From positions 1 to 57,418 of IMG/VR virus record IMGVR_UViG_3300033489_000010: a stretch of DNA of 57,418 nt; one strand, 5' to 3'. Of this stretch, positions 4,234-57,418 are shown piece by piece; within the stretch, counting starts at the first letter, position 1, and each line of letters opens with the position of its first letter. This DNA is from a virus. Taxonomy: Duplodnaviria; Caudoviricetes. The notes beneath the pieces were generated by a model that was not told the DNA's origin, ran no database searches, and saw only the letters and a list, made by a program, of their open reading frames with translations. A program made the position numbers and the translations under genes.

Positions 4234-4256
4234 AGAGATTTAGAAAAGGAAGGTGA

Positions 4257-4463
4257 ATGATGAAAACTTATCCAGCTTGTAAAGGTAAAAATTGTGGGTG
4301 CACGGACGGAGTAAGTCATTCCGTTGAGTGCAAAGAAGAATATGAGATGTCCGTAGATCCAGACTATTACAGAGGCGCTTGGGAGTGCCCGAACTGTGGA
4401 TATAAAGGTCAAGAAAACAGAATGATGGATACTTTTTGTAGTAAATGCCATCATCATAGATAA
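4257..4463 (+). CDS. Small Cys-rich hypothetical protein, last gene of the rightward arm
   Basis: GGAAGG RBS; CPNCG and CSKC; converges with the leftward arm at 4463/4470. Confidence 0.55.
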   Translation: MMKTYPACKGKNCGCTDGVSHSVECKEEYEMSVDPDYYRGAWECPNCGYKGQENRMMDTFCSKCHHHR

Positions 4464-9032: not shown

Positions 9033-12000
9033 TTATTCTGACGCCCTTAGTGATTCGAACAAGTTTTTTGTAATCTCATTCCTTCTCTTATTCAAAGCAT
9101 TTATCTTGTTTTGCTTTTCTTCGGAATTATCATTTGAGCTGTATATCCGCTTGATTTCATCATTGATATCAGCTAAGTTTTGTCGAATTTTTGTGACCGG
9201 TTTTTTCACTCGCAATAAATTTTTGTTTTCGATAACAAGATTCCTCGCATCCTCCCGCCTGCCTGTCTTCAAGTAATGGTTCAGCGTCCGATTCAGACCG
9301 TCGATTTTTTCATATAAATCATAAAAACGCTGCACATCCTTTGATGACCTAACGTCTCCGGTATCCATAACACCCAAGGCAAATGGGTTCCTTCTTCCTT
9401 CTGGTAAGTCAGGGTAACCCATAGCCGATCTTGACATCGCGTCGGTTCCAAAAAGCACCATGGCCCCCATGGTTGAAAAATATCCATTCACAAAATGCTC
9501 AAGCTTCAATGGAGAAACATTCAACGACCCACCTATCATCTTCATGGTATCGCTTGTCCATGGCATGTATTGCTCAGAAGGTTTCAAGTTCTTCATTGAA
9601 TCCGGAACAATCCTGCGGCCCTTAAATGTACTCATGTTAAACCGCTCTTCCATAATCGGCTTTACCATCTGTGGCATGTCAATATTGAAAACATCCCTTG
9701 CCGTAAACTTGAACCAATCCCACACAAACTTGCCTTCCTCTGTACCGTTCATGACATTTGCCACGCTTTCAGGAAGAGAGGCAAACAGAGCTCCTATCTC
9801 AAACGGTTTAGGAATCCTGTAATGCTGATCCCCTATCCAGAAATGAAAGTATGTCCACTTGTCCCAATCCTCAAGGGATTTGTACCGGTCATCATCTTTA
9901 AATAAAGACCATAGCGCAAGGGCGGCTGTTGTCAAAATGGCCGATTTCAAAAAGAAGGCTTTCGGGTTTTCATTTGCTGATCTACTCAGTTTATAAAGTC
10001 CCTGGACCCTGGCATTTAAAAACGGCACAATCCGGGTCAGAGCCTGAACAGTTCCGGAAGATCCACGCATCGAGAAATCGAGAAGATCCCTTGCTTCAAA
10101 CCCGGCATCAAGATTACTGTAGCCCTTACTTTTAAGCCTGGTATACAGCCCGAGTCTTGCAGCATTTTCCGAAGCTTCACCAATTTTATCCCATACACGG
10201 AACAAAGCATTGTCCCAAGGTTTAAACGGGTCTATTATTCTACGAATAGCACTCTTGCCTTCGGATCTTACAATTTTATCAATAAATCTGGACGCTGTTT
10301 TGGGATCATCCGATTTAACATATGAAGACCCGAACCCGAACCCGGTTGACATGAATTCGATATAATCCTTGTCCTCTTTCATGGACTTGATAAACCCGGA
10401 TGCAGTATCCAGGAATGGAACAAAATTTTTGGCCACAACAGCGGTATGGATTGTATCCCGGATCATGTTTCGAATACGGAAGGCAGGTCCGAATGTGGCA
10501 CCGAATGAAAGTATCCTCTTCGCTCCGCCCATCATCCGCATGAGGATGTTATTGAAAGCCTTCATGTCAAGCTCGGAAAGAGATTCATAAAGGTCTTCGT
10601 CGGTCGTTTTAAAATATACCGGTTCCCCGTTTTTCTGGAAAGACAGAATCCCATAATCCTTCATGCTGCCGAACATAACCTTATATTCTTTCCTTGGCTC
10701 CACTGAATACTGGCCCTTGCCGTCATCTTCCAGTGAATAGGCCCAGGTTTCCGCCTTTTCCTTCGTGCCAAAGATATCCCTACCCTTTGTGGCTCCTTCT
10801 TTCACGACGGCGAACCTGGTCACTGTCTCAGACCCGAGAATTTTGACAAGGTCTTTTTTCTCAACCTCCTCAATGATGCCAACCGTTTCGCCTGCTTCAA
10901 AAGCCCTTTGCCTTGCACGGTTTCTTACAGAAGCATCAACCAAGTGCATCCAGTTTTTCAAAAGGTTTTCCAGGGGATCGCCAATCTTAGCTTCCCCTCC
11001 TTTTAACTTTTTGATCTGTGCTGAAATATGCCGCCAGTTCTTCCTAGGTCCTGACAAGAATTCCTGTTGTGATATCGGATCTTCCATAATCCGATAGAAT
11101 GGAATATAAAAATTTGATTCCCATTCCGCCCTGCTTTCAGGATCAATGAGTCCTGCCTGTTCAGCTATATCAAGCACATTCTTATTGATGCTTTGGAGTT
11201 TCAGGTTAAGTGCAGCCCATGTCTGCCCGTTTTTGGCGTGAGTTCCCACCTTGGCAAAAAGCTTGTCCCTTGCATCCTTGTCAAGCCAGTTCTCCCGGCC
11301 TTCTGCTTCCAGTTGTTCCGCTCTTTTGGCAGCCACCCAATAGAGCAGGTTTCGCCAATCCGGACCGATGGCCCTAAGAAACGGGATAACCCCTTTGCCG
11401 CGCTCAGTGACAGCGATTGTGTCACCTACCCATGCCATGGGACCGTGCTCAAGAAACATGGCAAACGTGGCAGACTTAATACCGGTCAACATTCGGTGCA
11501 GTTTATACGGTTCGTCTCCAAGGCGTTCTTTGATAAAGTGCAGGTGATCCAGGGTTTTGGTAATAAAACGATCCCTGGCAAGGGTGCGTTCGTCTTTTGA
11601 TTTTGCCTTGTCAATCATCCCGGAAATTTGTTCCCGGGTTGTTGGTTCGGAATAAAATTTCTCGTCGATGATGCCTTTGTTAAAAAGGGTTTCGTTGCTG
11701 TCTGTTTGACCAGGAATTTTATTATAAATTTTCCCGCTCTCCATCTCCCGGGCAATTTTTCGGACGGACGGCCCAAATAAATTCCGGATCGAGTCAAGGA
11801 AATCTCTGATTTTCTGGATAATCTCACCGAGCAACGTATCTCTTTCGTACCTACGCTCTTCCAGGACCCGTGCAATATAGTTGGCCCGGTTTTCCCGCTG
11901 ATCTGCCACGAGTTCAAAATTAAGCTGAGCCTTGGCCGCATTTATCCGGGAATCCAGGATCAATTTTTCCCGGGGACCGATGATGCCGATATCCTCAAGC

Positions 12001-15000
12001 CAATGCTCAATCTCATGGTTCAGGGTCCAGGTGCCTGCCAGGTCTTTGACCAGTTCAATTTTATTTTTTCGGTAGGCCCCCAGGATCTGGCCTTTCTCGT
12101 TCCTCTTTCCGGTTTTCATGTCAAGGATGAGGCTCCCGTGTTTGCCTGGTTCTACGGATGTGATTTGAAGTTCTCCGCCGCCTTGGGTCCTGATCCGGAC
12201 TGAACCGTCGTCGGATATGCTGACGTCTTGGCCCGGGAAGGCTTTTTGGATGTCGCTTATGGTTACGAGTTGGGAGGGAGTCTGAGAAGAATATTGCACA
12301 CCTTCCCCCGGTGTGCTGGATGGGTTAGGGGATGAGTTTATAATTTCGATTAAATCATCAACGGCTTTCTGTTTTTGCGTGGCCTCTTTATCATATCCTT
12401 GGTAGCCCATGCCTTTTAAATATTTGGCAGTATTGAGCTGGTTAATTTTTAAAATTAATTCTGACTGTTTGTAAGATGGGCCTTTCTTATTGTATTCAGC
12501 TTTGGATATTGGGGATAGGTTCGACATTACAAATTCATCGTCACCACCAAAACCTATAACCTCTCCCTCGTAATAATATATTTTACGCTTAGAGGCTGCA
12601 TCCATTGTGGCGAATCCTCTGGATTCATCAAACCCAAAAACAGAAGCCATCGAAACGCCGGATTCATATTTATTTTCTCTTGAATTATAAGACTGTCCGC
12701 TTTCAGGGGCTTCCCCATATCTATACCCAACGGTTTTAACAGATATCTTTCCATCCTTGAAAGCTTTTACTGACTTATTAATGGACTCTAAATTGATACC
12801 ACCATCGGGCTGCGGGGTTAATCCAGTGGTTATGTCGTCGCCCTTCCCCGTTTCGGATTTCACTGATTCTTTATTATCAGGATTTTTATTATTTTGTAAA
12901 GAGGAATGATACTGCACCTCACCGTCCTGCTGATTAATGGGCTGTTCGGAAAACTCAGGAGTCTTTATTCCGAGAATATCCATAACCTTCACAGAGTCTG
13001 CCGCATTCTCAAACACTTCCTCCATGCCGTTGATCAAATGATCAAGCGTCCGTTTCATCCTTCCGGCTGGAACAAATACCTTCATCCTGTTTCCGGATTT
13101 CACAAAGTCGCTTCCAACCGAATCAATCAGCCCTGAATTCAGATAATACCGGCTACCACTTGCCTTGGATGCAGGGACAGAAATGGTCCCTGACCCATCC
13201 TGTTTCGGTGTAATGGCAAAATCCCCACGCCTGGACCTGACAAAGATATTATTGCTTAAAACCGTCATGATATCTTTGGTGTTGGTCAAAGTAATCGGTC
13301 GGCCTTGAGATTCTTTATTCAGATCAAATTTTGCAGGCATCAATATACCCTGCCGGACCCGGCCTTTATCGTCCGCGAAATTAATGATCCTGCCCTTCGG
13401 ATACCGGGCAAAGGCTGCCAGTAAATTCCCGGTCATGATAACTCTGGTTTCCCTGGCACTCTGGCTGGACCGGTCGAATTTTGACAAAACGGATTCGTTT
13501 ATTTTCCCGTTATTGCTGAAAGATTCCATCCGGTTGATAAAGGAAAATGGCACGACGAGTTTTCTTGTTGAATCTGGAACTGCAACGGTAACTTTCCATG
13601 TTCCCAAAGCCAATGGATTTTTGGGATTGCCTTTTTGCTCAACACCGAGAACAACGGTTTCAAAATACGTGTCACCTATAGGGATTTCAAGAATAGATCC
13701 TGGCACGGATGAATAAAAGACTCTTTCCCAATCATCTCTTATTGCGTCAAGCCTGCTCGCCTGGGCTCTCAATCTTTCCTCATCCTCGATATCATCCAAT
13801 ATACCATTTCGATAATCAAGGAATCGGTTCAGGATATCTGAGCTTTTATCATAATGTTTGTCACGGCCTTCATTTGCCAATTCATTCAAGCTTTTTTCTG
13901 TGGTTCTTGCCTCTTTCGAATCAAGCCCGAATATGTTTTCCTTTAATAGATTGACAACCTCTTCACTGGAATACGATTTGCCTATCTTTTTCATGTCCAC
14001 TTCTTCGGCAAAGGCATTGCTGGTAAAAGGAGATTTATCGCCCTTACCATCAAAAACAGTGGCTTTTTTTAATGTTTTGGCATCGGTATCAAAGGTCTTT
14101 GCCTCCAGGTCATTCTCGCCCATGGCGTCAAGCTGATCAATCAGATCTGTGTATCCTTCCTCAATCAAGGCATAAAGGTCTTCCTGTTCTTTGATGGTCG
14201 GCAATAAGGGAATTCTGCCAGTCACCTTCCGGGCCGCGCCATCTTCATCAAGTCCTGATTCCGTCTTATCTGAATTTTTTAAAGGGCTCCCGATGGCAGA
14301 GTGCATTTCAGGAAAGTCCGCCATAAGCCTAGCAACAACCTTGTCACCATATTTATTGATAAAATCCACAACATTTTTGGCCGTGACTTCGCTGTCCTTG
14401 GATGCAGTCGTGTTGGCGTTCAGGCTTGCCATTTTCCCGGCCAGAACAGCAGCCGGTCTTTTTTCGGAAGGGATATCCCCCATGAGCTGGATATATGATG
14501 GCGTTTTTACCTGTCCGGCCCGGTGTATCCTGCCGAGCATCTGCATATGTGTATCAATGTTTGCCTCGGCCTGGGCAATGATCATTACTCTTGGTTTGGG
14601 ATCGTGTCCCTCCCACTTCGGTACCGCATGAAGTGACAACCCGGTTGCCCCGCTTTGATTTAGAATTAAAACATCTGTTTTGTCGGTGTTGAAATCATAA
14701 ATGGTTTTTGTTCGGCCGGCAATGCTTTTGTCTTTCGTCCCCCTCATCCGGTATCGCTGAGATCCGTCCGGCCGGTATTCAATCATATGATTCCGGCCTG
14801 TTATTTCACTGGCATTCAATCCGGCTCCCTTCAGTTTGAATATCATATAATCAACCGGGGAAACCGGGAGCCCGTCAAGATCCATATCAAAAATAAGTTT
14901 TTTAACCCGGTTGAATTCCCTGACTCCTTCCGGGCCTAAGTCATCATCTGAAATATAATGACGGATGACATCTTTTTTATTACCGCCTGGCTTCGTTTCG

Positions 15001-18000
15001 GTGTATCGCCGGGTATTATCCAGATACTTGAACAGGAGATCATTAAACTTGAGGCCGATCCCATCTCCAGGCTTCAACCCGTTATCCTCTACATACTGCT
15101 CAATGAATGAGCCCATGGTGTTTGAAAGTGTGATAACCGGCTTTTTATCTTCCTTCACGGCCTTGATAGCTTCATCAACGGCTGCTTGAGTCTTCAGGGA
15201 AAGCAGCATCTGAGAAATAAGATTGTGCATGGTGGATGCGAAACTGACCGAGCTGATTTGAGGTGCCGCTGCCGCTGACATGCCGCCGATACCGGTTCCA
15301 TCAAAGGCTCCCTGATCTGCAAGCTCAGATATTGCAGGTTCTATAAATTCTTCTGAAAATTTTTTGATCTGATTCAAAGAGATGGAAACATCCCGAGCCC
15401 GGACCTGATCAATCTTGGTTGCCTTGGTGGCATACTCAACACCGTCAAAAGACCTTTCACGCCTCACATACTGCCCGGCCTCCACCAGCATTGCCGCCAC
15501 GGCCTGCTGTAACGGGACCCCGCCTGCGGATATGGCCCCTGACAGATCCTTGATATCATCGACGGCAAGGCGCATATCTGTTTTGGAATACAAATCCATG
15601 GTGCTCGGCCGCTTTGCATATGTGGCGGATGAATAAAATGTTGAATGGGCGCTTTGAATTAATCGTCTGAACCATATTGACCTTGGATATTTCTCGTTGG
15701 TTTCCTGAGCTCCCTCTGACCCTCCGGCCTTATGAGCTTCATCAAGAATGAGCATCCCATTTTTTTCGGCCATGGCTTCCAGGAAAACCCGCTGTGCTGA
15801 ACCCGGTTTATTTGTCTGGTCATATGTGGTAAAAATCACGCTGTACTTTGAATCAAGAAACCCATTATCAGCCATCTGTTTCAAAAGCGAATTGTGCTTA
15901 TTCGTGGTTCGGATGACCTTATCTCCGTCCTCGGTCAAGGATATTTTTTGATCGGCATTGGTGATCAGTATCCGGTCCGCCATGTCAGACATCCCGATAT
16001 CTGAAAGATCCCGGTACATATCCGTGTAAAGGTTCGGCTTCTCAGTAACAAATATGGGAGTGAGGCCCCGCTCCATGGCAAACCGGATCATGGCAGCAAC
16101 AACCCGGCCCTTGCCCACACCGGTCTGATCCCCGATAATAAACCCGGCCCCTTTATCAATGTTGTTGATGGCCAGGGCGATGGCGTCAACCTGTTCACCG
16201 GAAAAATATTCCTTCAGTTCATCCTGGGAGTACCCGAGCTTTTCAGAGACATACTCATCCACAAGCCCATGCTTTTCATTGATGTCGGCCAGGGCCTTTT
16301 TGATGGCCTCGGACATATTCACGGGCGTGAGGGTTTCTATGGCAGGAGATTTGCTTGATGGGATATAGGGAACCTGCCCGGAGTTTGCCTTTGCTTTTTC
16401 TTTTGGTTTTGGCTGTAGTTGCTGTGACTGTTCCATGAAAAATCGTTTTAAATAAGGCTTCAATTCTGCGCCTGTTTGTGTGGCCAGATATTGAATCAAC
16501 TGTTTAAGCGTGTGCCCGGCTTTCTTTGCATGGTCCCAGGCGCTTGCAAAGAAAGGCCGTGCAGCTTTATAGGTTTCTTCATTAAAGACAAATCCAGATG
16601 ACAGGGTGTTCCTTGGAGTGAAAAGGGCGTTTAGGCCCTTGATGGCATCTTTAACGTCTGACAAGCTTTCTAAAGCAAAATCGTTTAACAGGTCTTTCTT
16701 TGTTTTGGGTTTTCTATTTGGTGGCTTGTTCTTTTGCGCTTCTCTCCTGGCCCAATTTTTTAGATATTGTTCTATCGCCTTTTCATTTTTAGCCCGTGAA
16801 GATTGCAACCCTACTTCGGAGGATCGTCTTCCTCTGTCTGGTTTTTCAACAGGGATAGCGATATCATCCGTAGAGGTGTTAAAAACATCGTCAATAAGTC
16901 CGTCAATTTCTTCAACGGACATATTTTGAAGTTCTTCCGATATGTCTTTGGGAACGGTTATGTCTGGACCGAAAGCATCGTCCAGCATGGAATCAAGATC
17001 AGATTCAGAAATGTTTTTTAATTCATCCGTTAAGCCAGGTTTTCCATCCAGGTTTCCAGATCCATCAGTCTTAGGATTTCTTCGGCTTCCGGGCTGGTCT
17101 CCATTATCGGGCTTGTCGGCAGGTTGTCGTGAACTCCCATCATCGACAGGTGATGATACAGGCGTTCGTTGATCTGGTCCGACATCAGATCTAGTGCCGC
17201 CGTCCTTGTCGATCTCGGGGATATCATTCCGTCCTGTAACAGATCGGCGTTCTCCAGGGTCTTTTCCAGCATCTTTGCCGCTTCCTGGGGATATTCCGCT
17301 TTGTTTATCAGGTTCTGAACCAGGTCTATCATCAGGTATCTGTGGTAACTTGGCGTCAGGGTCTCCCCCTTCGGGAGCCATACCGCTGCTATCCATTGCG
17401 CCGAGCTCTCCTCGGGAGGAGCCCAGGCTATCAGGTCTTTGTGTGGTCTTTCCATCAAGCTTTCCTTTCAGTTCTTCCAGCGTTTTTAAATAGGGTGGCG
17501 GAACCGCCCCAGGAAGAGCAAGTTTTGATTTCCCCTTCCCATCAATCACTATGAAATCAACCGGCCAGGCAGCACCCTGCTTTGCATAAAGATCGCCTGA
17601 CAAAGAAAAGTGGTCAACTACATTATAATTGTCAAAGAGGGTTTTGTAAAATAAAACCTTATCTTTTGCTCGGTATAAAAGCTTTCTGCCTTCCGGGGTA
17701 ATGTTTTTATCATTCACACTTCCGACAATGAAAACCGCCCAGCCATTATCTTTCATGGATTCAAGAGCCTTAAAAACGATGGCATGGTCAATCTGAGTCG
17801 TGGGATATTGATCGTTTATTTTCCAGGTTTTTGATACTCCGGCGTCATCCTTGACAACACCAAATGGAGGGTTGCCGATGACAGCATCTACTTTTTCAGC
17901 CGCTGATATTTCTGTCCCATCAAGGTTGAAAATGACATTGAAGCCCATCCCGAGCAGGGTATTATACCGGTCCGGATTCAATTCGTTGGCCGTCACCTTC

Positions 18001-21000
18001 TCAGGGTTCGACCCGATAAGCAAGGCCCCATTCCCGGCTGACGGCTCATAAACGGTTTTACCGGATGTGATCCCGGCCAGTTCAGACGCAATCCATGCCA
18101 AAGGAAGAGGGGTTGAATATGCCTGATCTCTGACCGATGTGGATGTCCTGACGGAAAGATTCGGCATTCGGTTTTGCAAGTCAACGAGCTTATCAAATAT
18201 CTTTTCAGACGTCCCGTTGTGCTTTTTTCCGCCATCTATAATCGCCCGGGCTGCGAGTACGCCGGCCGTCTCGATGGCTTCATCCACCATCTTGGCATCC
18301 TGGGTACCGGCCTTAATGATAAAGCCTGTTTCATCCGCAAAGGCTTTTCTGGCCTGGAGGATATTGGCAAAGCCCTTCCCGGATCGGAATGCGGAAAGGA
18401 AGAAATCTGTTATGTCGCTTTTGGTAGGTTGTTCTTTGGTATCTATTTTTTCTTTTGACTCTTTTTCTACCTTCTCTCTATCAAACTCCGCAATCTCTTC
18501 GATTGTCAGATAATCTGTTGCCCCTTGTTTGTACAGGTCTTTTGGGTTATGGGGCTGCGGCATCACGCCGCTTCTTGTTGGCACAAGGCGCACGGGGTGA
18601 CCGACACGGAGCCCGGATTCTTCTTGATATGATCTGGCTCCCCTCTCATCAACATAAATTCTTTTTCCGTCAGGGTTTCGGCCTATAGCCCCCCTAAGGT
18701 CCATGTCATCATCTTTTTTAATGGGTTCCGTTATCGTCGATTCAGGAACATTTTCTGGGATATTCTCAGGAACATTCAGAGACAGATCCTTCTCCTTAAC
18801 AAATGTCCCTTTCCCATCCTGCTTTCTAATAAACCACATTTTGTCGGACTGTTTTTTTTCAAGCTTTCCGGAAAACTGGTCGCCGTTCTTACCATTCCAT
18901 GATACCGGATCTCCGGGCTTTAAGCCGGTTGTCTGCGGAGCAATGGCAGTGTCAGAAAAGACAGGTTTCTTGGTTCTATTGCCATCTTTCACCCAGGCCT
19001 TGAAATCTTCTGTGCCCATCTCGGTGATATTTCCAAGGCCTTTCCAGCCCTTTTCATAATTGGCAAGATAAATGGATTCAGCTTCTTCCTTTGACCCGGC
19101 GCCAAGCACCGCCTTGTGCTCATCAAACTTTCCGGTTCCCGGGTCTACCTGATCAACAACAAATACTTTCGGGCTGGTTTCTGTTCCGGGCTTGATAAAA
19201 ACATCAACCTGATCCCCGTCTTTGCCTTCGGTCCTTTTGAAATAGCCATAATGCCCGGACATGGTTGACTGCCATTCTTTCCCGGATTTATCCTTCCCTT
19301 TTCGGATGGACCCGTCCGGGTTCTCAATCGTGATATTCAAGCCATCAATTTTGATATGGTCTTTCTGGTAATTCCCGGCCTCTTTCTGGGCTTCGCTCGG
19401 GTTGGTATTTATTTTTTCCGGTTCAACTTCATGCTCAAAAACTGGCCGCAATGTTGAAATCGCTTCCGCCGGAAGATCCTGCATTCCAAAATTATCAGTT
19501 AAGCCCTGTTGAAATTTTCTTTGATCACGGACAGGAGAGGTCTCAACCTCCGCTGGTGCAACGTCCAGCCCGTCATCATAATTATTTTCAGGAAATACCG
19601 GAAGAGCCTGGCGCGGTAACATATCGGCCAAACCTGCAAACGGTCTGTATTTGCCTTCATCGCTGGTATCGGCCATGCCTCTCTGAAAAGCTGGCATGTC
19701 AGCAGGAAGCGGCATCGTGCTTTCATCCGGACCATTTACCATGGCTCTTTGAAAAACAGGTTGATCGGTCTGACCCATGGCCTGCTGACGAAGTTCTAAA
19801 GCCTGTACGGATGCTTCCCGGCTTCTGACTTGCCGGAAGGTATCAATATTTTTAGAAAGCAGATCCTGGCTTTGATCGATACCCTGTTTTGTAATGGCCG
19901 GATCAGGTTGGGAATAAATGCCTGTCATGGCCTGTTGATTCTGCTCTCGCAGAGATTGAACCGGGTCAGACGTGGAAGGAGTCTCGGTCGGTGCAGGCGG
20001 GGCAGGATTCCTCTGCCGGTTGATTTCGTCCATCCATCCGAGTTCTTCCTCATTCGGTACGCCTGCAAACGGGATCGTGTCGGAATATTGTTCGGCCGGT
20101 GCGGTTCGCATTGCGGTTTGAAAACTGTCTGCCGGGGCCTGTGGTGATTTGGTTAAATCTTCTCCGGAAAAACCTTTGTTTGGATCCAAAAGGTTTGTGG
20201 GCTTGTCTTTCAATAAAGCGTTTGCGCCAATAGAAACACCAGCTCCACCGGCCCCACCGACTGCCCCGGCTCCCATAGCTTCAATAATTTGCTCTATATT
20301 GGCTGGTGTAAGAAATTTTTCATCAGTATTTGCAACTGTATTCAAAATACTAAATACTTCCTGGCCGCCTTCCTGTAATACTTCTTTTGGGATATTGGTG
20401 ATCAGTCCCATAGCGGCTGACTTGATCGCTTTCCCGGAACCAGATCCAACCACGTCAACAAATTGGTCAATCAGTTCGCTGTTACCGCCGGCGTATTCCA
20501 GCGATGTAGACAAGGCTCCGAAAAACAAAGCCGTGCCAGGGGCATCAATGCCTTTTTCCTGAAGCAATTGAGCATAATTCCCACCGGATTCCAATGGCAG
20601 AACCGCAGCGCCCATGCCTACTTTCCCGCCAAGTTTCATCAAGGCCTGTTTTGTGATCTGTTTTTTAAGCTCAGTTTCTGCAATGCCTTTTGATGCCTCG
20701 GTAATCACGCCCTTGGCTATTTGAGCCTCCACGGCTTCTTTTGTCATTGATTCGATAGATTTTTTCAATATGGTTCTGCTTGCGAACCCGCCTATTGCGG
20801 ACCCTGGTCCAGGAGCAACGCCGGTTCCTATAATGGTTCCAATAGCAGCCTCAGCCATGGATGGGACCAACTCTCCAAGGGTGCCTTGTAGCCAGTCAAC
20901 AGACCCACCAATTCCAGCCTTTCCAGTATAAACATCTTTAAAGGTTTGTTTTGCGGGATTCTCTTCGGCCTCGGCCATGTTACGCTGATATCCTTGCATA

Positions 21001-21266
21001 CCCCAATTTTTAACGGAGTCAGAGCCAACCGCTGATCCGACAAGAGCTGTTGCACCATATAAACTGGCCTGCGTTTGATCAATGCCTCGTTTGATACCTG
21101 GGATGAAATCATTGTCAGATTGCACTTCAAATTCATCTTCACTTATTGCTGTAGGCGGACCAAATTTAAAATTAGAATTCTCTAAAATTCCACCACTTGC
21201 TGAGCCTATGTCAAACTCATCAGGACTGATTGCAACTGCATTTTTCCCAAGAAAAAAAGCCGACAT
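9033..21266 (-). CDS. Giant 4077-aa polyvalent (DarB-like) virion ejection protein: inorganic pyrophosphatase-like, N6-adenine MTase, Strawberry-notch SF2 helicase, zincin and LPD38-like domains
   Basis: AGNYQKDH..IENP.GS.R...HYGY...DGDQVDVF..DEHK (about 19.4-19.0 kb); YSTP/EPSAGNG/NPPF (18.1-17.8 kb); GDQTGVGKGR, DEAH, QSGATGLSLHA, QMLGRIHR (16.1-14.5 kb); HEIEH (about 12.0 kb); RIPKPFEIG (about 9.8 kb). Confidence 0.85.
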   Translation of the reverse strand: MSAFFLGKNAVAISPDEFDIGSASGGILENSNFKFGPPTAISEDEFEVQSDNDFIPGIKRGIDQTQASLYGATALVGSAVGSDSVKNWGMQGYQRNMAEAEENPAKQTFKDVYTGKAGIGGSVDWLQGTLGELVPSMAEAAIGTIIGTGVAPGPGSAIGGFASRTILKKSIESMTKEAVEAQIAKGVITEASKGIAETELKKQITKQALMKLGGKVGMGAAVLPLESGGNYAQLLQEKGIDAPGTALFFGALSTSLEYAGGNSELIDQFVDVVGSGSGKAIKSAAMGLITNIPKEVLQEGGQEVFSILNTVANTDEKFLTPANIEQIIEAMGAGAVGGAGGAGVSIGANALLKDKPTNLLDPNKGFSGEDLTKSPQAPADSFQTAMRTAPAEQYSDTIPFAGVPNEEELGWMDEINRQRNPAPPAPTETPSTSDPVQSLREQNQQAMTGIYSQPDPAITKQGIDQSQDLLSKNIDTFRQVRSREASVQALELRQQAMGQTDQPVFQRAMVNGPDESTMPLPADMPAFQRGMADTSDEGKYRPFAGLADMLPRQALPVFPENNYDDGLDVAPAEVETSPVRDQRKFQQGLTDNFGMQDLPAEAISTLRPVFEHEVEPEKINTNPSEAQKEAGNYQKDHIKIDGLNITIENPDGSIRKGKDKSGKEWQSTMSGHYGYFKRTEGKDGDQVDVFIKPGTETSPKVFVVDQVDPGTGKFDEHKAVLGAGSKEEAESIYLANYEKGWKGLGNITEMGTEDFKAWVKDGNRTKKPVFSDTAIAPQTTGLKPGDPVSWNGKNGDQFSGKLEKKQSDKMWFIRKQDGKGTFVKEKDLSLNVPENIPENVPESTITEPIKKDDDMDLRGAIGRNPDGKRIYVDERGARSYQEESGLRVGHPVRLVPTRSGVMPQPHNPKDLYKQGATDYLTIEEIAEFDREKVEKESKEKIDTKEQPTKSDITDFFLSAFRSGKGFANILQARKAFADETGFIIKAGTQDAKMVDEAIETAGVLAARAIIDGGKKHNGTSEKIFDKLVDLQNRMPNLSVRTSTSVRDQAYSTPLPLAWIASELAGITSGKTVYEPSAGNGALLIGSNPEKVTANELNPDRYNTLLGMGFNVIFNLDGTEISAAEKVDAVIGNPPFGVVKDDAGVSKTWKINDQYPTTQIDHAIVFKALESMKDNGWAVFIVGSVNDKNITPEGRKLLYRAKDKVLFYKTLFDNYNVVDHFSLSGDLYAKQGAAWPVDFIVIDGKGKSKLALPGAVPPPYLKTLEELKGKLDGKTTQRPDSLGSSRGELGAMDSSGMAPEGGDPDAKLPQIPDDRPGSEPDKQSGISPGSGKDAGKDPGERRSVTGRNDIPEIDKDGGTRSDVGPDQRTPVSSPVDDGSSRQPADKPDNGDQPGSRRNPKTDGSGNLDGKPGLTDELKNISESDLDSMLDDAFGPDITVPKDISEELQNMSVEEIDGLIDDVFNTSTDDIAIPVEKPDRGRRSSEVGLQSSRAKNEKAIEQYLKNWARREAQKNKPPNRKPKTKKDLLNDFALESLSDVKDAIKGLNALFTPRNTLSSGFVFNEETYKAARPFFASAWDHAKKAGHTLKQLIQYLATQTGAELKPYLKRFFMEQSQQLQPKPKEKAKANSGQVPYIPSSKSPAIETLTPVNMSEAIKKALADINEKHGLVDEYVSEKLGYSQDELKEYFSGEQVDAIALAINNIDKGAGFIIGDQTGVGKGRVVAAMIRFAMERGLTPIFVTEKPNLYTDMYRDLSDIGMSDMADRILITNADQKISLTEDGDKVIRTTNKHNSLLKQMADNGFLDSKYSVIFTTYDQTNKPGSAQRVFLEAMAEKNGMLILDEAHKAGGSEGAQETNEKYPRSIWFRRLIQSAHSTFYSSATYAKRPSTMDLYSKTDMRLAVDDIKDLSGAISAGGVPLQQAVAAMLVEAGQYVRRERSFDGVEYATKATKIDQVRARDVSISLNQIKKFSEEFIEPAISELADQGAFDGTGIGGMSAAAAPQISSVSFASTMHNLISQMLLSLKTQAAVDEAIKAVKEDKKPVITLSNTMGSFIEQYVEDNGLKPGDGIGLKFNDLLFKYLDNTRRYTETKPGGNKKDVIRHYISDDDLGPEGVREFNRVKKLIFDMDLDGLPVSPVDYMIFKLKGAGLNASEITGRNHMIEYRPDGSQRYRMRGTKDKSIAGRTKTIYDFNTDKTDVLILNQSGATGLSLHAVPKWEGHDPKPRVMIIAQAEANIDTHMQMLGRIHRAGQVKTPSYIQLMGDIPSEKRPAAVLAGKMASLNANTTASKDSEVTAKNVVDFINKYGDKVVARLMADFPEMHSAIGSPLKNSDKTESGLDEDGAARKVTGRIPLLPTIKEQEDLYALIEEGYTDLIDQLDAMGENDLEAKTFDTDAKTLKKATVFDGKGDKSPFTSNAFAEEVDMKKIGKSYSSEEVVNLLKENIFGLDSKEARTTEKSLNELANEGRDKHYDKSSDILNRFLDYRNGILDDIEDEERLRAQASRLDAIRDDWERVFYSSVPGSILEIPIGDTYFETVVLGVEQKGNPKNPLALGTWKVTVAVPDSTRKLVVPFSFINRMESFSNNGKINESVLSKFDRSSQSARETRVIMTGNLLAAFARYPKGRIINFADDKGRVRQGILMPAKFDLNKESQGRPITLTNTKDIMTVLSNNIFVRSRRGDFAITPKQDGSGTISVPASKASGSRYYLNSGLIDSVGSDFVKSGNRMKVFVPAGRMKRTLDHLINGMEEVFENAADSVKVMDILGIKTPEFSEQPINQQDGEVQYHSSLQNNKNPDNKESVKSETGKGDDITTGLTPQPDGGINLESINKSVKAFKDGKISVKTVGYRYGEAPESGQSYNSRENKYESGVSMASVFGFDESRGFATMDAASKRKIYYYEGEVIGFGGDDEFVMSNLSPISKAEYNKKGPSYKQSELILKINQLNTAKYLKGMGYQGYDKEATQKQKAVDDLIEIINSSPNPSSTPGEGVQYSSQTPSQLVTISDIQKAFPGQDVSISDDGSVRIRTQGGGELQITSVEPGKHGSLILDMKTGKRNEKGQILGAYRKNKIELVKDLAGTWTLNHEIEHWLEDIGIIGPREKLILDSRINAAKAQLNFELVADQRENRANYIARVLEERRYERDTLLGEIIQKIRDFLDSIRNLFGPSVRKIAREMESGKIYNKIPGQTDSNETLFNKGIIDEKFYSEPTTREQISGMIDKAKSKDERTLARDRFITKTLDHLHFIKERLGDEPYKLHRMLTGIKSATFAMFLEHGPMAWVGDTIAVTERGKGVIPFLRAIGPDWRNLLYWVAAKRAEQLEAEGRENWLDKDARDKLFAKVGTHAKNGQTWAALNLKLQSINKNVLDIAEQAGLIDPESRAEWESNFYIPFYRIMEDPISQQEFLSGPRKNWRHISAQIKKLKGGEAKIGDPLENLLKNWMHLVDASVRNRARQRAFEAGETVGIIEEVEKKDLVKILGSETVTRFAVVKEGATKGRDIFGTKEKAETWAYSLEDDGKGQYSVEPRKEYKVMFGSMKDYGILSFQKNGEPVYFKTTDEDLYESLSELDMKAFNNILMRMMGGAKRILSFGATFGPAFRIRNMIRDTIHTAVVAKNFVPFLDTASGFIKSMKEDKDYIEFMSTGFGFGSSYVKSDDPKTASRFIDKIVRSEGKSAIRRIIDPFKPWDNALFRVWDKIGEASENAARLGLYTRLKSKGYSNLDAGFEARDLLDFSMRGSSGTVQALTRIVPFLNARVQGLYKLSRSANENPKAFFLKSAILTTAALALWSLFKDDDRYKSLEDWDKWTYFHFWIGDQHYRIPKPFEIGALFASLPESVANVMNGTEEGKFVWDWFKFTARDVFNIDMPQMVKPIMEERFNMSTFKGRRIVPDSMKNLKPSEQYMPWTSDTMKMIGGSLNVSPLKLEHFVNGYFSTMGAMVLFGTDAMSRSAMGYPDLPEGRRNPFALGVMDTGDVRSSKDVQRFYDLYEKIDGLNRTLNHYLKTGRREDARNLVIENKNLLRVKKPVTKIRQNLADINDEIKRIYSSNDNSEEKQNKINALNKRRNEITKNLFESLRASE
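17030..17455 (-). CDS. Candidate nested (overprinted) gene in an alternative frame of the giant gene's disordered linker
   Basis: 141-codon ORF; AAAGGA SD 7 nt before the ATG; helical globular-like composition exactly spanning a G/D/P/S/R-rich linker of the main frame. Confidence 0.45.
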   Translation of the reverse strand: MERPHKDLIAWAPPEESSAQWIAAVWLPKGETLTPSYHRYLMIDLVQNLINKAEYPQEAAKMLEKTLENADLLQDGMISPRSTRTAALDLMSDQINERLYHHLSMMGVHDNLPTSPIMETSPEAEEILRLMDLETWMENLA

Positions 21267-23255: not shown

Positions 23256-23546
23256 TTAAGACAACAAATAAGCCCCTATACCAAGGGCAGCGCCTAACGC
23301 CAATCCAACCCCGCCGGTACCCACTCCCAAAGCGGTCAATGCACCGGCGCCTATTTCTGTACCCGCCAAGGCTGACATGGCTGTAGCTCCGCCTACCCCA
23401 GACATTATCGCTCCACCAGCCGTCGGACCCGGTTTCCGGTTAGCCGGGATATCCTTCATCATTGACCCATATGTCCCTGATGCCTGGCTCATACCCTGCA
23501 TGGCCTTCTCCATTGGATTTGAAACCGTATACATATTAACCCCCAT
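23256..23546 (-). CDS. Glycine-zipper virion membrane protein (ejection protein)
   Basis: GxxxG-rich hydrophobic C-terminus GVGLALGAALGIGAYLLS. Confidence 0.6.
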   Translation of the reverse strand: MGVNMYTVSNPMEKAMQGMSQASGTYGSMMKDIPANRKPGPTAGGAIMSGVGGATAMSALAGTEIGAGALTALGVGTGGVGLALGAALGIGAYLLS

Positions 23547-24210
23547 ATCCCATTGCTGTGGTCAGTCTTGCAAAATTTTCCTGTTCTGCATTAGTCCTGG
23601 CCGTGTTCATAGCCCCAGCAACTGTCTTAGCCTGATTTAGGCTATTTGAATTTATTGCATTTGCGAAAGCCCCGGAATTAGGATTGATGCCCATCCTTGA
23701 GGCATTCCGTCTCGTAATGGAGTCAGAATTTTTAAAAGAAGTGATCGCATCCGCAGCCGCCCTACTTGCCCTTGATTCAACATCCACCCCGGTCAATGCC
23801 TGTTCAAAAAACTTAGACGTTACGGGTGCTTTAGCATTGATCGTAGAAAGGTCAGAAGCATTTTTTGCCTTGCCCAAAGCGACTTGGCCCGGCAGGATAT
23901 CTCTTTCGGCCTGCATCTTTTCAACATTCATGGCTGTTTCAACAGGGATCATTTCCATGTTGGCGGCGATCTGAGCCTTTTCCATGGCTGTTTCAACAGG
24001 GATCATTTCCATGTTGGCGGCGATCTGAGCCTTTTCCATGGGTTGATAGTCTGATTTCCAGAAATCAAAGGACTGGTTCGCCATATCCTGCTGTGTCTCG
24101 GCAAGCGTAGCCATGCGGGCGTTATAAGCTGCATCATATGATTCTCCGCTGCTTCCGCCTTTAAAAAAAAGATTATTCCACAACTGCTGTCTTTGTCTAG
24201 GAGTCTTCAT
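23536..24210 (-). CDS. Probable DNA-transfer/ejection protein
   Basis: FKGGSSG N-terminal motif, Ala/Gln-rich, RMGINPNSG; follows the GNAT-like gene as in podoviral ejection modules. Confidence 0.6.
   Translation of the reverse strand: MKTPRQRQQLWNNLFFKGGSSGESYDAAYNARMATLAETQQDMANQSFDFWKSDYQPMEKAQIAANMEMIPVETAMEKAQIAANMEMIPVETAMNVEKMQAERDILPGQVALGKAKNASDLSTINAKAPVTSKFFEQALTGVDVESRASRAAADAITSFKNSDSITRRNASRMGINPNSGAFANAINSNSLNQAKTVAGAMNTARTNAEQENFARLTTAMGYGG
23929..24041. repeat. Perfect 54-bp tandem duplication (MEKAQIAANMEMIPVETA x2) bounded by CATGG microhomology
   Basis: Units start at 23929 and 23983; a third CATGG lies at 24037. Confidence 0.95.
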
Positions 24211-43228: not shown

Positions 43229-43492
43229 TCAATTATCACTTCTGGGCGCTTCTTGAATCCGGGTCCGATCAAAATGGTCAAACCCATAAACGTCCGGCTT
43301 CAAAACAGTTATCTGACTATGCCGATGATCTTTCATCCAGCCCTGAAGCATTTCGAAATATTCGTAGGTTTCAGGCCAGTCCGTTCCGTGGTCAACAAAG
43401 ATTGCTTCAAACTCATCTTTCTGATCCAAGAGCATCAACATCATTGCAACCGAATTCACACCACCCCCAAACGATAAATATTTTTTCATCAA
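43229..43492 (-). pseudogene. N-terminal fragment of a PAPS-reductase/PP-loop family protein
   Basis: YLSFGGGVNS.AM...IFVDHG.DWPETYEY matches the family start, but the ORF ends at 87 aa. Confidence 0.6.
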
Positions 43493-53206: not shown

Positions 53207-53628
53207 TCTCGTTCCTCCTTAAAAAGCCCTGCCCATTTCTCAGCCGCAAGACTACCGGCCCAACAGGATTGATATTTGAAATCGTTTATATTTTCCAAAT
53301 GGTTGATTATTTCGTTAATCGTTTCAGCTATTTTCGGGTTGAATTTGAAGCTTGATTTCTCTATCATTTCCAGGCAAAACGAAAACAGGGTCCCCACATG
53401 CCTGGTTTGATTCAGCCATCCGGTTTCTTTTCCGAATTTTTCGACCGTCTCCCATATCCTGTTAAGGTCCTCTTCGGACGGCCGGGGGAATTTCCTCAGG
53501 TCTTTGTCAACCGCTTTTTGAAGCTGAAGGAAAAGAGCTTTCTTTCGGCTGGGTTTCAGAGTTCCGATTGTGAGGTCAGGTATAGCACGGATCAAGGCCA
53601 ATTCGGTTATGTGGCGGAGGGCTGCCAT
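53113..53628 (-). CDS. Hypothetical protein
   Basis: TAATG coupling to the upstream gene; C-terminus overlaps the next gene by about 90 nt. Confidence 0.5.
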   Translation of the reverse strand: MAALRHITELALIRAIPDLTIGTLKPSRKKALFLQLQKAVDKDLRKFPRPSEEDLNRIWETVEKFGKETGWLNQTRHVGTLFSFCLEMIEKSSFKFNPKIAETINEIINHLENINDFKYQSCWAGSLAAEKWAGLFKEEREWIKIKIYAKNSPRQKRTGILSLSRQPRSPK

Positions 53629-54209
53629 TATTTCACCGCCTTTCCGGCCACGATATCAACGAACCAATATTTATCAACTTTACGTAGATCGATCTCGTTG
53701 ACATTTTCTAAAATATATTCCCGGATACTGTGATCCTTGATAAACCAAATGTCCCCGCCTTGGTGTTCGGTCCTTGCCGTACCGCGCTTTTTGGCCTTGA
53801 GCCTGCCATCTTTGATAGCCCTCATGACGAAATGCACATCCACACCGAAACACTCGGCAAGACTATGCGCCGACTGACCCAGCAGATTCCCCAGCAGCCT
53901 GAGCCGTTTGCGTTTCAAAACGATCCCGCAGGCAGACCTGGTAAAACCGGCAGCCTTAAGCCGGAGTTGTATCCTTTCCGGGGTGATATGCTCCCAGCGC
54001 TCCAGTATCTCCAGTTCACGGTTTGACCAGATGGGTTCTTTCTTTTGTTTTTGTATCCAACCGTGCCGGATGGCGTGGCGGGTCACTTTCCAGCGGGGCA
54101 GCTTCAGCCTGTCAGCAAGATCAGCGATTTCACCGGAACCTGTGTTGGACATATAAGTCCGGAATATTTCATCATGGGCTTGGCTGGTTATGTGATACCT
54201 CTGAATCAT
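53628..54209 (-). CDS. Multi-HTH DNA-binding protein
   Basis: IADLADRLKLPRWKV; WSNRELEIL; AHSLAECFGVDVHFV.RAI..G.L (excisionase/MerR-like wHTH). Confidence 0.6.
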   Translation of the reverse strand: MIQRYHITSQAHDEIFRTYMSNTGSGEIADLADRLKLPRWKVTRHAIRHGWIQKQKKEPIWSNRELEILERWEHITPERIQLRLKAAGFTRSACGIVLKRKRLRLLGNLLGQSAHSLAECFGVDVHFVMRAIKDGRLKAKKRGTARTEHQGGDIWFIKDHSIREYILENVNEIDLRKVDKYWFVDIVAGKAVK

Positions 54210-54394
54210 CTTACCACCCCCATGAAAAAATTCTGGACGGGGTAAAGATGGAAGGCCCCTGGGGATGAAAAAAGAAATGGCTCATGAACCGGCGGAGAAA
54301 TCCAAACCGGTTTCGGGGGTGTGAAATAATTGGAATGTGCGTGGAATTGAAAAACCGGCTGTTTGTCCGGCTTTTCGTGAAATTGGTCTTTCAT
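54206..54394 (-). CDS. 62-aa leader peptide, first ORF of the leftward arm, coupled to the HTH gene
   Basis: AAGGAGG SD at 54400-06; ATGA overlap with 53628..54209. Confidence 0.55.
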   Translation of the reverse strand: MKDQFHEKPDKQPVFQFHAHSNYFTPPKPVWISPPVHEPFLFSSPGAFHLYPVQNFFMGVVR

Positions 54395-54413
54395 GTTGCC
54401 CTCCTTGTCTGGA

Positions 54414-54439
54414 GGGTTTTGGGAAACTGTGGTGGGATT
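54414..54439. repeat. 26-bp direct repeat GGGTTTTGGGAAACTGTGGTGGGATT, copy 1 (in the leftward 5' leader)
   Basis: Identical to 54879-54904. Confidence 0.95.
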
Positions 54440-54449
54440 CCTGATGGTT

Positions 54450-54478
54450 ATTGAATCAGAAAATCATCCAGATGTCAA
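54450..54478 (-). promoter_or_regulatory. Candidate leftward promoter
   Basis: TTGACA-17 nt-TTCAAT with TGn; the -10 is imperfect. Confidence 0.5.
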
Positions 54479-54537
54479 ATATTTTTTCAAGCATACATTT
54501 CATAGGCCGCTAAAATCTTTAATTTTTTTAAAAACCC

Positions 54538-54566
54538 TTGACTCTGCTAAATTTTTAGAATAAATT
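54538..54566 (+). promoter_or_regulatory. Rightward promoter predicted to give a leaderless mRNA
   Basis: TTGACT-17 nt-TAAATT; ATG lies 7 nt after the -10; no SD. Confidence 0.6.
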
Positions 54567-54572
54567 GATGCC

Positions 54573-54815
54573 ATGAAATTCAAACAGACGGAAATAAAAA
54601 AAATCCTGGGAGTATCTGACGCGCTCGTGTCTTTACTCCTGTCAGGGAAAAGTCCCATTACATACCGGATGGCAAAAAAAATCAGTGTCATGACCGGGAT
54701 AGAAATAATTTTTATAATGGAGGCTTCCCCGAAAGAACTCAGGAAAGTTTTCAGGATTTTGGTTAGGAATGTCCGTGCTGAACCGACCACGGAAACCCCG
54801 TTGACTCGGGGATAA
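54573..54815 (+). CDS. Cro/XRE-family HTH regulator
   Basis: KQTEIKKILGVSDALVSLLLSGKSPIT..MAKKI...TGI. Confidence 0.8.
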   Translation: MKFKQTEIKKILGVSDALVSLLLSGKSPITYRMAKKISVMTGIEIIFIMEASPKELRKVFRILVRNVRAEPTTETPLTRG

Positions 54816-54878
54816 CAGGAATGGCGGCCCGGTTGGAAACATAAAGGTAAGAACGAAGTCAAATATTTAATTTTAAAT

Positions 54879-54913
54879 GGGTTTTGGGAAACTGTGGTGG
54901 GATTTCAAGACCC
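54879..54913 (+). ncRNA. Copy 2 of the 26-bp repeat folded as a hairpin; candidate antisense RNA
   Basis: GGGUUUUGGGA / UUUCAAGACCC 11-bp stem with G.U pairs (plus strand only); loop AACUGUGGUGGGA. Confidence 0.5.
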
Positions 54914-55075
54914 GAAGGAGGGAAAAAAAGAACGCACAAAGGGGGTCAGCCGCCTCACGAAACGAGGACCAACGGTATGCGGTCAGGGATTATGGAGTTC
55001 TGCGAGGATAAATATGGGCACCCTGGAAGATAGGCCAAAGAGTGCCCATACCTCTACAAAAAAACAGGAGGGTAT

Positions 55076-55246
55076 GTGAAAAAGAAAAGAATTTTAACAA
55101 ACATTTCTGCAGCCCTGGCAATATCAGCGATTTGCCTAACCATGTGTGAGACCCAGGATGTAAAAAGCCAGTTAATTCTGGCAACAATCGGAATCATGAT
55201 GGCATGTGTTGGCGGATATTTTTTATGTGTCATCAACAGAAAATGA
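55076..55246 (+). CDS. 56-aa two-helix membrane protein (below the ORF-track cutoff)
   Basis: AGGAGG SD, GTG start; MKKKRILTNISAALAISAICLTMCETQDVKSQLILATIGIMMACVGGYFLCVINRK. Confidence 0.55.
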   Translation: MKKKRILTNISAALAISAICLTMCETQDVKSQLILATIGIMMACVGGYFLCVINRK

Positions 55247-55361
55247 GATCATTCCCACCCAATGTGGTGTTTCATATTCTACCTCCGGGCTGGCCATGGA
55301 CAGTCTTTACCTCCCACCTGATACAAGGTGCCGAAAGGCAGCGGGGAACCATGATTAAATT

Positions 55362-55712
55362 ATGAAAGATCATCAGGACATAGGGATTCTCAAATCGGCA
55401 TATATTCAAAAATGCCGGGAACTCGAAAAAACCCTTTCTGAATATCCTAAGTTAGCCGAAGATATGGCAGGTAAAGAAAGGGCCTATCTTATTGCAAAAT
55501 CACAGGCAATTTTGAAACTGAAAAAAGAGGGTATCCCTATCACCCTGATACCGGATTTGTCAAAAGGTGAGGCTGTAAATCACCGGTTTGAATACCAGGT
55601 TTCAGAGGCGATTTTTAATGCCTGTAAGGAGAACATTAAGCGGCTTCATGCCAATCTTGATGCTTATCGCTCTTTACTCTCAGTTGCGAAATCAGAAATG
55701 GAGGTTAGATAA
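55362..55712 (+). CDS. Hypothetical helical phage protein
   Basis: 116-aa ORF coupled to the resolvase gene. Confidence 0.65.
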   Translation: MKDHQDIGILKSAYIQKCRELEKTLSEYPKLAEDMAGKERAYLIAKSQAILKLKKEGIPITLIPDLSKGEAVNHRFEYQVSEAIFNACKENIKRLHANLDAYRSLLSVAKSEMEVR

Positions 55713-56811: not shown

Positions 56812-57418
56812 ATGAAAAACAATATTGACTTTTATCAGCACTACGCCAATGCGGATCAACATCCAAAATTTAAAATGTTGAGGGTTCAATTCGGTTGGGC
56901 TGGGGAAGGCAGGTTCTGGGCTTTAAATAACAGAATAGCCCAGGCTGATAATTGTTGTTTGGATATTTCAAAAAAATACAATGCTGCATCTATAGCCTCA
57001 GACATCGGGCTTTCTATGGACGAGTTTGAGGCTTTTATCCTATGTTTAAAAAATGATTGTGAGCTTATCAAAGAATGTTCCCCTGGTGTGGTAACGACAG
57101 ATATTATTCAAGAAAATTTCAAGAGTGTTTCCGGCAATAGAGAGAAGGCGAGAGAAAGAAAAGAGCGTTACTTTGAAAAGGTTTCTAAAGGTTCACCCGA
57201 ACTTTTAAATAGTTCGCCCGACCAAAACAAGAAAGTAAAGGAAAGTAAAGTAAAGGAAAGTAAAGTAAAGGAAAGTAAAGTACTAGAAGAGATACCCCCC
57301 TTACCCCCCAGGGGGAAATCCGAAAAGGTTTTTTCTGAATTAAAAGATTATCTGGAAAAAATGATTCCTGAAAAACTCTCCTATTCTAAAAATGAAATAA
57401 TTTCTTTTTACAAATACC
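56812..57418 (+). CDS. Phage replication initiator, N-terminal part (DUF4373/Lin1244-like), continuing through the terminal repeat to 520
   Basis: MKNNIDFYQHYANADQHPKFKMLRVQFGWAGEGRFWAL...; open to the end of the window; GGGGA SD; upstream of dnaB. Confidence 0.75.
   Translation, partial: MKNNIDFYQHYANADQHPKFKMLRVQFGWAGEGRFWALNNRIAQADNCCLDISKKYNAASIASDIGLSMDEFEAFILCLKNDCELIKECSPGVVTTDIIQENFKSVSGNREKARERKERYFEKVSKGSPELLNSSPDQNKKVKESKVKESKVKESKVLEEIPPLPPRGKSEKVFSELKDYLEKMIPEKLSYSKNEIISFYKY
57153..57418. repeat. Terminal direct repeat, right copy
   Basis: Matches 1-266 with 3 substitutions. Confidence 0.95.

Follow-up and report, generated by a model that had tools for sequence, protein, structure and literature searches.

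Each of the two divergent early arms of this uncultured phage carries one copy of an exact 26-bp direct repeat (GGGTTTTGGGAAACTGTGGTGGGATT; 465 bp from start to start). Copy 2, read as plus-strand RNA, is the perfect complement of the leader of the leftward transcript. Both copies take part in local RNA hairpins, and the boxes, as we call the two copies, are conserved together with these hairpins in one related phage, G001, where they have changed in parallel. We conclude from this single genome pair that the match between the boxes is maintained, and this is the chief new result of the analysis. For their role, we find it plausible, if somewhat short of probable, that translation of the leftward leader ORF is gated by a duplex of about 28 bp between the two divergent early RNAs. 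This interpretation has one serious rival, in which the boxes are DNA sites for a phage protein.

The window, that is the whole stretch of 57,418 bp analysed here, is the entire virus record (Table 1). Its first and last 266 nt (1-266 and 57153-57418) form a direct repeat of 99% identity and the replication-initiator ORF is cut by both record ends. The map is therefore effectively circular and the record, although classed as linear, is probably circular or terminally redundant. Judging by gene content, the two arms diverge from a junction at 54.4-54.6 kb. The rightward arm comprises, in this order, the 80-aa HTH gene, a 56-aa hydrophobic ORF, phrog_1389, a RuvC-like resolvase, an HNH endonuclease, the replication initiator and a DnaB-like helicase. 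The leftward arm starts with the 62-aa ORF, the 193-aa gene and SbcD- and SbcC-like genes, followed by about 45 kb of further minus-strand ORFs, and also includes a tail assembly chaperone-like gene. The sequence-only reading had noted no obvious CI-type repressor, which holds for the genes scanned in the window. Two other features of the minus strand were observed: a single ORF of 4,077 aa (9033-21266) in the leftward arm and an exact 54-nt tandem duplication (23929-24036) which, being in frame, adds 18 residues within ORF 23536..24210 (224 aa).

Table 1. Coordinates of the record and of the features around the junction of the two arms.
Feature	Coordinates	Strand	Remarks
IMG/VR virus record IMGVR_UViG_3300033489_000010			57,418 bp; whole record; CheckV: 100% complete
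193-aa gene	53628..54209	-	ATGA-coupled to leader ORF; predicted three small helical DNA-binding-like domains
62-aa leader ORF	54206..54394	-	No family match; G001 version 61 aa with conserved ends
SD-sequestering hairpin CCCUCC-AGACAA-GGAGGG	54399..54416	-	Stem identical in G001, loop changed at 6/6 positions
Box copy 1	54414..54439		C/A-rich 5′ part of leftward leader (minus-strand RNA); last 3 bases are the first 3 C of the anti-SD arm
Predicted leftward promoter	54450..54478	-	TTGACA (54478-54473), 17-nt spacer, TTCAAT (54455-54450); read from the sequence
Predicted rightward promoter	54538..54566	+	TTGACT-17-TAAATT, 6 nt 5′ of the HTH gene ATG
80-aa HTH gene	54573..54815	+	HTH_3 E 0.0002, just under Pfam cutoff
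Box copy 2	54879..54904		In 260-nt gap between rightward HTH gene and next rightward ORF
Copy-2 hairpin	54879..54913	+	11 pairs including 3 G.U; 13-nt loop AACUGUGGUGGGA; stable as plus-strand RNA only
Next rightward ORF (56 aa, hydrophobic)	55076..55246	+	Followed by phrog_1389, RuvC-like, HNH and replication genes

The exact repeat had been reported by the sequence-only reading and was recovered here at both places. None of 100 dinucleotide shuffles contained two matches to the box, not even at a tolerance of three mismatches. If the 266-nt terminal overlap and the 54-nt tandem duplication are set aside, the box is the sole exact dispersed repeat of at least 18 nt in the record. Extra copies of the box halves in the record did not exceed chance: 4 matches against 1.97 expected for one half, two of them being the copies themselves, and 10 against 9.88 for the other. 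The count is thus exactly two boxes in the record and two in G001, with none beyond chance elsewhere. No dyad symmetry was found in the box, and its leader strand is poor in G (12 C, 9 A, 4 U and 1 G). Copy 2 starts 64 nt past the end of the rightward HTH gene and is taken as non-coding because the reading frames over it differ between the window and G001. A small ORF across it (54877..55011) was accordingly rejected, its frame being lost in G001. Two other candidates were set aside: a further repeat near both boxes (D3, GAWGTCAAATATTT), which G001 does not retain, and, in G001, an inverted 11-nt match to the box that sits within a coding region.

G001 (54,697-bp record; 193-aa protein 77% identical) is the one close relative in the collections searched. 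Its boxes are located at the same two landmarks, box 1 in the same leader and box 2 at the same place relative to the phrog_1389 gene, with a spacing of 3,270 bp versus 465 bp in the window. Covariation of both copies in relatives, which the sequence-only reading had named as a check, was examined in this phage by four-way alignment. Copy 1 differs between the two phages at 6 of the 26 positions, and five of these six changes are mirrored in copy 2 (T/C, A/G, A/T, G/A and T/C). The unmirrored differences, each confined to a single copy, comprise an A/G, an A/T and one extra base on the G001 side, and in the window a C/T immediately after the 26-mer. On either side of box 1 the two phages have identical sequence, from the SD arm to the start codon in one direction (the SD-hairpin loop excepted) and over the next 12 nt in the other; hence the box evolves faster than its surroundings. 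With a divergence of about 0.25 per site and a one-in-three chance of the same base, five mirrored changes out of six would arise in independent copies with p ~2e-5, by rough arithmetic. Mirrored changes being this improbable in independent copies, something keeps the boxes matched.

Recombination might be what does so. The repeat would then have no regulatory role and would represent the duplicated boundary of an exchangeable immunity cassette of 465 bp (window) or 3.27 kb (G001), its copies being kept alike by recombination or gene conversion, or it would be a crossover or deletion point for cassette swapping. The limits of homology fit this, since the two phages cease to align shortly within each box and the intervening DNA has neither content nor length in common, and the phage encodes SbcCD-like and RuvC-like recombination proteins. 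The 3.2-kb G001 insert carries extra regulator-like ORFs: between its boxes we observed secreted-protein-like, Cys-rich small, membrane and weak PAS-like ORFs, a leftward ORF of 159 aa and rightward ones of 73 and 163 aa. None is supported as a repressor by comparison with Pfam, and a CI-like label for any of them would be an impression only. However, gene conversion would be expected to be very inefficient in an island of 26-32 bp between unrelated flanks. Moreover, without selection, direct repeats on either side of the sole rightward early promoter would be prone to lethal deletion, and both boxes lie at RNA-structural landmarks conserved in both phages. We thus regard a purely recombinational origin of the match as quite unlikely. 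As an observation in its own right, one of the G001 ORFs between the boxes (L014 1304-1573, minus strand) is a small secreted Cys-rich ORF of 89 aa with CCSHHGG...CCDG motifs, accompanied by other moron-like genes.

We then consider the leftward leader, where box 1 lies. Transcription from the predicted leftward promoter would start near 54445-54442, that is 3-6 nt ahead of box 1; a promoter scan gave a different candidate (54490-54463), likewise upstream of the box. G001 keeps TTGACA and the spacing, and the -10 hexamers are weak (TTCAAT in the window, GACGAT in G001). A 22-nt stretch between two leftward genes (43467-43488) is 82% identical to the predicted promoter region (54468-54489); this may reflect a second leftward promoter, or chance similarity between AT-rich stretches.

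The hairpin that the sequence-only reading had proposed to lock the SD was found on the minus strand as described: CCCUCC (54416-54411), the loop AGACAA, GGAGGG (54404-54399), CAAC and the AUG at 54394, GGAGGG thus ending 4 nt 5′ of the start codon of the 62-aa ORF. Its fold has -13.9 kcal/mol and a z-score of -2.46, with 5 of 200 shuffles equally good. In both phages the SD is predicted to be fully paired, whether a short or a long context is folded. For the leader target of box 2, the predicted unpaired probability is 0.8-0.99 in the window; the target is less open in G001. Coupling of the short ORF to a downstream gene, also claimed before, was borne out: the 62-aa ORF (38% identical to its 61-aa G001 version, pairwise E 4e-7) ends with ATGA overlapping the start of the 193-aa gene. 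In distant relatives the place directly before the 193-aa homologue is mostly taken by a zinc-ribbon-like ORF (MPxYDFxCExCG...PPRFC), which in some runs into it (L137, L141, L142, L144, L148-L151, L153, L161-L163, L169 and others); in the window and G001 the 62-aa ORF, which lacks Cys, stands there instead.

In the rightward unit, 6 nt separate the predicted promoter from the HTH gene ATG, pointing to a near-leaderless mRNA. The rightward HTH genes of both phages begin within a few bases of the predicted -10 (window 54538-54575; G001 L014 3200-3265). The 80-aa product and the 73-aa ORF at the corresponding place in G001 are weakly similar (34% over 38 aa). The promoter spacer contains a 12-bp palindrome, CTAAATTTTTAG (54547-54558), found once in the record and by itself not significant, and G001 shows unrelated TTGTCA/TGACAA-type palindromes at the matching place. 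A terminator scan found no terminator-like site between the HTH gene and copy 2. Since the 56-aa ORF, phrog_1389, RuvC-like, HNH and replication genes follow, copy 2 would lie within the rightward early unit. In the gap that separates box 2 from the 56-aa ORF, a 12-bp inverted repeat (92% complementary; 55013-55050) with no T-run after it was also observed.

As the sequence-only reading had it, copy 2 and the next 9 nt fold into a hairpin of 11 pairs, three of them G.U, around a 13-nt loop. On the plus strand this hairpin has -15.1 kcal/mol (z -2.17; 9 of 200 shuffles equally good), versus -5.7 kcal/mol (z -0.24) on the minus strand. Two stem positions have changed in G001 with pairing kept (U.G to C-G and G.U to G-C), and the 3′ arm, although outside the repeat, is conserved there. 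In the minimum-energy fold of the whole 54573-55080 RNA (508 nt) the hairpin is missing and other pairings replace it. In G001 the loop is mostly closed by a weak inner stem. Hairpin z-scores were modest overall (-1.1 to -2.5).

A simple model of pairing between the two RNAs would run as follows. The leftward early transcript would start a few bases before box 1, so that its 5′ end would be a G-poor stretch running into the anti-SD arm of the hairpin that buries the ribosome binding site (RBS) of the 62-aa ORF. The rightward early transcript would read through the HTH gene into box 2 and offer the complementary G/U-rich sequence, in part within its own hairpin loop. Pairing would begin between this loop and the leader 5′ end and zip to about 28 bp (26 Watson-Crick, one G.U and one further pair). 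The duplex might then draw the anti-SD arm off the SD, or form an RNase III substrate whose cleavage removes that arm. The first genes of the 50-kb leftward arm, namely the leader ORF and its ATGA-coupled 193-aa regulator, would thus be translated only with the rightward promoter active. Should the RNAs pair, translation activation would be clearly the likelier outcome, and cleavage or mutual down-regulation the less likely one. That both transcripts exist, that they meet and that the effect is activation, we infer from the sequence.

Cofolding of leader and box-2 RNAs gave gains of -33.0 and -30.1 kcal/mol for the two cognate pairs and of -12.6 and -18.3 kcal/mol for the swapped ones, an advantage of 12-20 kcal/mol which follows largely from the sequences themselves. 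With the partner, the unpaired probability of the SD is predicted to rise from 0.00-0.01 to 0.03-0.72 in the window and 0.13-0.78 in G001. Of the six anti-SD bases, the duplex would invade three in the window, where a 3-bp remnant is kept in the model, and all six in G001. Of the antisense gating put forward by the sequence-only reading, the geometry stood, with boxes conserved in position and co-varied in G001, but the predicted opening of the SD is only partial.

Several features argue for pairing at the RNA level. The window copies are identical at 26/26 positions; pairing would constrain every position, whereas protein sites usually drift at non-contact ones. The SD stem is unchanged while its loop varies freely, and the copy-2 stem is strand-specific, with a conserved 3′ arm and changes that keep pairing. 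Both transition differences between copies (C in copy 1 and T in copy 2 at window position 27; A/G in G001) would leave a wobble pair in the inter-RNA duplex, an outcome expected by chance about one time in four. Further points in favour are the five mirrored changes, the cognate gain on cofolding, the open target and G-poor strand of the leader in the window, the conserved TTGACA and spacing, the lack of a terminator-like site ahead of copy 2 and the non-coding nature of box 2. Against such pairing, a perfect match of 26 bp exceeds what RNA pairing requires, and boxes in two genomes only amount to one independent comparison. The partial SD opening, the long-context copy-2 fold, the closure of the G001 loop and the modest z-scores also count against it, as does the interrupted G001 duplex, in which an inserted base and a transversion between the copies leave a bulge and a mismatch.

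A cmscan of 53900-55500 against Rfam, which includes c4 and isrK models, gave four weak matches at E up to 5 (two miRNA, a Wolbachia sRNA and a lncRNA) and no phage RNA family. This lack of a family match counts against RNA pairing and bears as well on a further possibility, that the boxes are nut- or put-like sites at which both early transcripts would acquire an antitermination factor in the manner of lambda or HK022. In lambda, nutL and nutR are like sequences just downstream of the leftward promoter and just past cro, and the positions of the boxes, in the leftward leader and just past the cro-like gene, mimic theirs. A shared RNA signal in divergent units requires inverted DNA sites, however, and the boxes are direct repeats; therefore the two RNAs are complementary, not alike, and the orientation contradicts the comparison. 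With no Rfam match either, we consider such sites very improbable.

The serious rival to RNA pairing is that the box is an asymmetric DNA site which has co-evolved with its phage protein, most likely the 193-aa product. At box 1, about +4 to +30 relative to the leftward promoter, this protein would regulate its own gene; at box 2, past the HTH gene, its binding would block read-through into the replication genes, or modulate it. Copy 1 indeed lies where operators often are, and tandem HTH-type modules can read long asymmetric sites. A model of the 193-aa protein, built from a 28-sequence alignment (mean pLDDT 81.9, pTM 0.46), predicts three small helical, HTH-like domains (residues 2-52, 55-109 and 109-172), and the lack of dyad symmetry in the box would fit a monomeric multi-domain reader. 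VIA-align places the model nearest to DNA-binding modules, namely the GcrA DNA-binding domain (Z 7.4), BldC (Z 6.4), Myb repeats, homeodomains, the Tc3 bipartite domain, the Xis of mycobacteriophage Pukovnik and TipAL. An identity of 77% between the phages would leave room for a shift of specificity. Nevertheless, all these Z scores (7.4 at most) are below 8, a range common for unrelated helical folds, Foldseek with the same model returned nothing at E <=0.001, and the Pfam match of the protein, to HTH_17, is weak (E 0.0063) and below Pfam's cutoff.

The boxes themselves also fit such a site imperfectly. There are two per genome only, and their 26/26 identity with five mirrored changes exceeds what is usual for protein sites. 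The sites of P1 C1 and the stoperators of mycobacteriophage L5 are asymmetric, 13-17 bp long, present in many copies and variable between copies; like them, the box is a non-palindromic repeated element near early promoters, but here there are exactly two identical copies of 26 bp, not multiple dispersed sites. A DNA site would leave the strand-specific copy-2 stem and the overlap with the anti-SD arm without reason, and no comparable boxes were found near distant 193-aa homologues, in 33 upstream regions and 12 loci examined for repeats. The Cro-like 80-aa HTH protein makes a poor candidate binder given the palindrome in its own promoter and the unrelated ones in the counterpart region of G001. 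Taken together, we judge binding of a protein to the box rather unlikely, though a rival to be reckoned with. Were it true, it would define a site for an uncharacterised family of triple-HTH regulators of many sediment and soil phages.

Among known systems, the logic of the proposed RNA switch most nearly resembles that of IsrK of the Gifsy-1 prophage. In this prophage a short RNA binds an inactive mRNA in trans and turns on a short ORF coupled to a regulator; a single promoter gives rise to IsrK and to its orf45/anrP target mRNA as two isoforms (Hershko-Shalev et al. 2016, PMC4825925; PMC12197685). The predicted arrangement shares with it a trans-acting phage RNA, a silent mRNA and a short upstream ORF coupled to a downstream regulator: in the window, and likewise in G001, we observed a short ORF, an RBS buried in the predicted folds, where the SD is fully paired, and ATGA coupling to the 193-aa gene. 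For the decisive step of such a system, in which the trans RNA binds the silent mRNA and lets 30S subunits bind, the cofolding results offer a thermodynamic prediction. The arrangement differs in that the RNAs would come from divergent early promoters and in the explicit anti-SD hairpin, and there is no sequence or Rfam similarity.

Phage immunity by short RNA complementarity is also the business of the CI RNA of P4. The c4 antisense RNA of P1/P7 represses from within its target's own transcript (PMC12197685). As in these cases, immunity or timing would here depend on short complementarities, the matched sequences differing between related phages. c4 and CI, however, repress by RBS block or termination and are processed from the transcript of their target, whereas the boxes are complementary to the anti-SD side rather than to the SD, and do so from the opposite arm. 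No Rfam similarity was found, and the boxes lie in divergent units, not in one transcript.

In the DsrA/RprA-rpoS system and in synthetic toehold switches, the SD is locked in a hairpin; a trans RNA pairs with a single-stranded 5′ toehold and from there invades the anti-SD arm. The window similarly has a target predicted to be single-stranded beside the anti-SD arm, with complementarity over 26 nt plus 2; invasion is predicted to reach 3/6 anti-SD bases here and 6/6 in G001, and the activator would be part of an mRNA instead of an Hfq-type sRNA with a terminator. The term natural toehold-like, used in the sequence-only reading, thus describes a predicted logic. A bolder form of the RNA proposal is that a segment of the rightward (replication) transcript is a natural toehold-type activator of the first leftward-arm cistrons, that one repressible promoter would thereby license both arms, and that the pair of about 26 nt is phage-specific 'immunity' information drifting by matched changes; we think this full version unlikely on the whole, if worth stating. 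No published description of the matched-box arrangement was found in a narrow topical literature search.

If the RNAs do pair in this manner, the phage would have a natural compact AND-gate between two early operons, made from a 26-nt complementarity and an SD hairpin, the same design that synthetic biologists devised as toehold switches. It would be the second phage case of a trans-activated coupled leader ORF, mechanistically distinct from IsrK, and would indicate that immunity-like specificity can reside in an RNA pair flanking an exchangeable repressor cassette.

Searches for further boxes returned to G001. The exact 26-mer and three conserved-flank or degenerate patterns matched G001 only in viral contigs. 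A looser box pattern gave at least 119 loci, mostly by chance, and tblastn with a leader regex screen left only L114, which is G001, as related among the matches listed. Scanning viral contigs for the 193-aa gene yielded three loci from six stretches, with the leader in G001 only: the region upstream of the gene differs in L004, and L005 is cut at the gene start. Scans for phrog_1389-like genes gave G001 only, or G001 and one 33%-identical locus with another layout. The metagenome scan provided 53 loci from 224 stretches. A hairpin motif screen of 43 metagenome loci matched G001 only, besides one unrelated match in L139, and blastn-short of both box regions against 60 loci recovered G001's own locus only, beyond 11-20-nt matches (E 0.004 or weaker). 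In genome contigs, query A2 retrieved no relatives and query A1 three distant ones. Reads from three DNA runs yielded nothing further at the boxes.

Other repeats were observed in the course of these comparisons. In L192, a Deltaproteobacteria MAG contig, a 45-nt direct repeat (3022-3066 and 4236-4280; 96% identical, 1,214 bp apart) occupies two intergenic gaps of a co-directional array and is probably a repeated promoter or regulatory element. Finally, several related metagenome contigs contain intergenic short tandem arrays (L141 4130-6290, L164 3030-3130 and L172 5475-6245), with 7-nt GAGTCAG-like, AGGTAGA-like and 5-nt GGTAA-like units.
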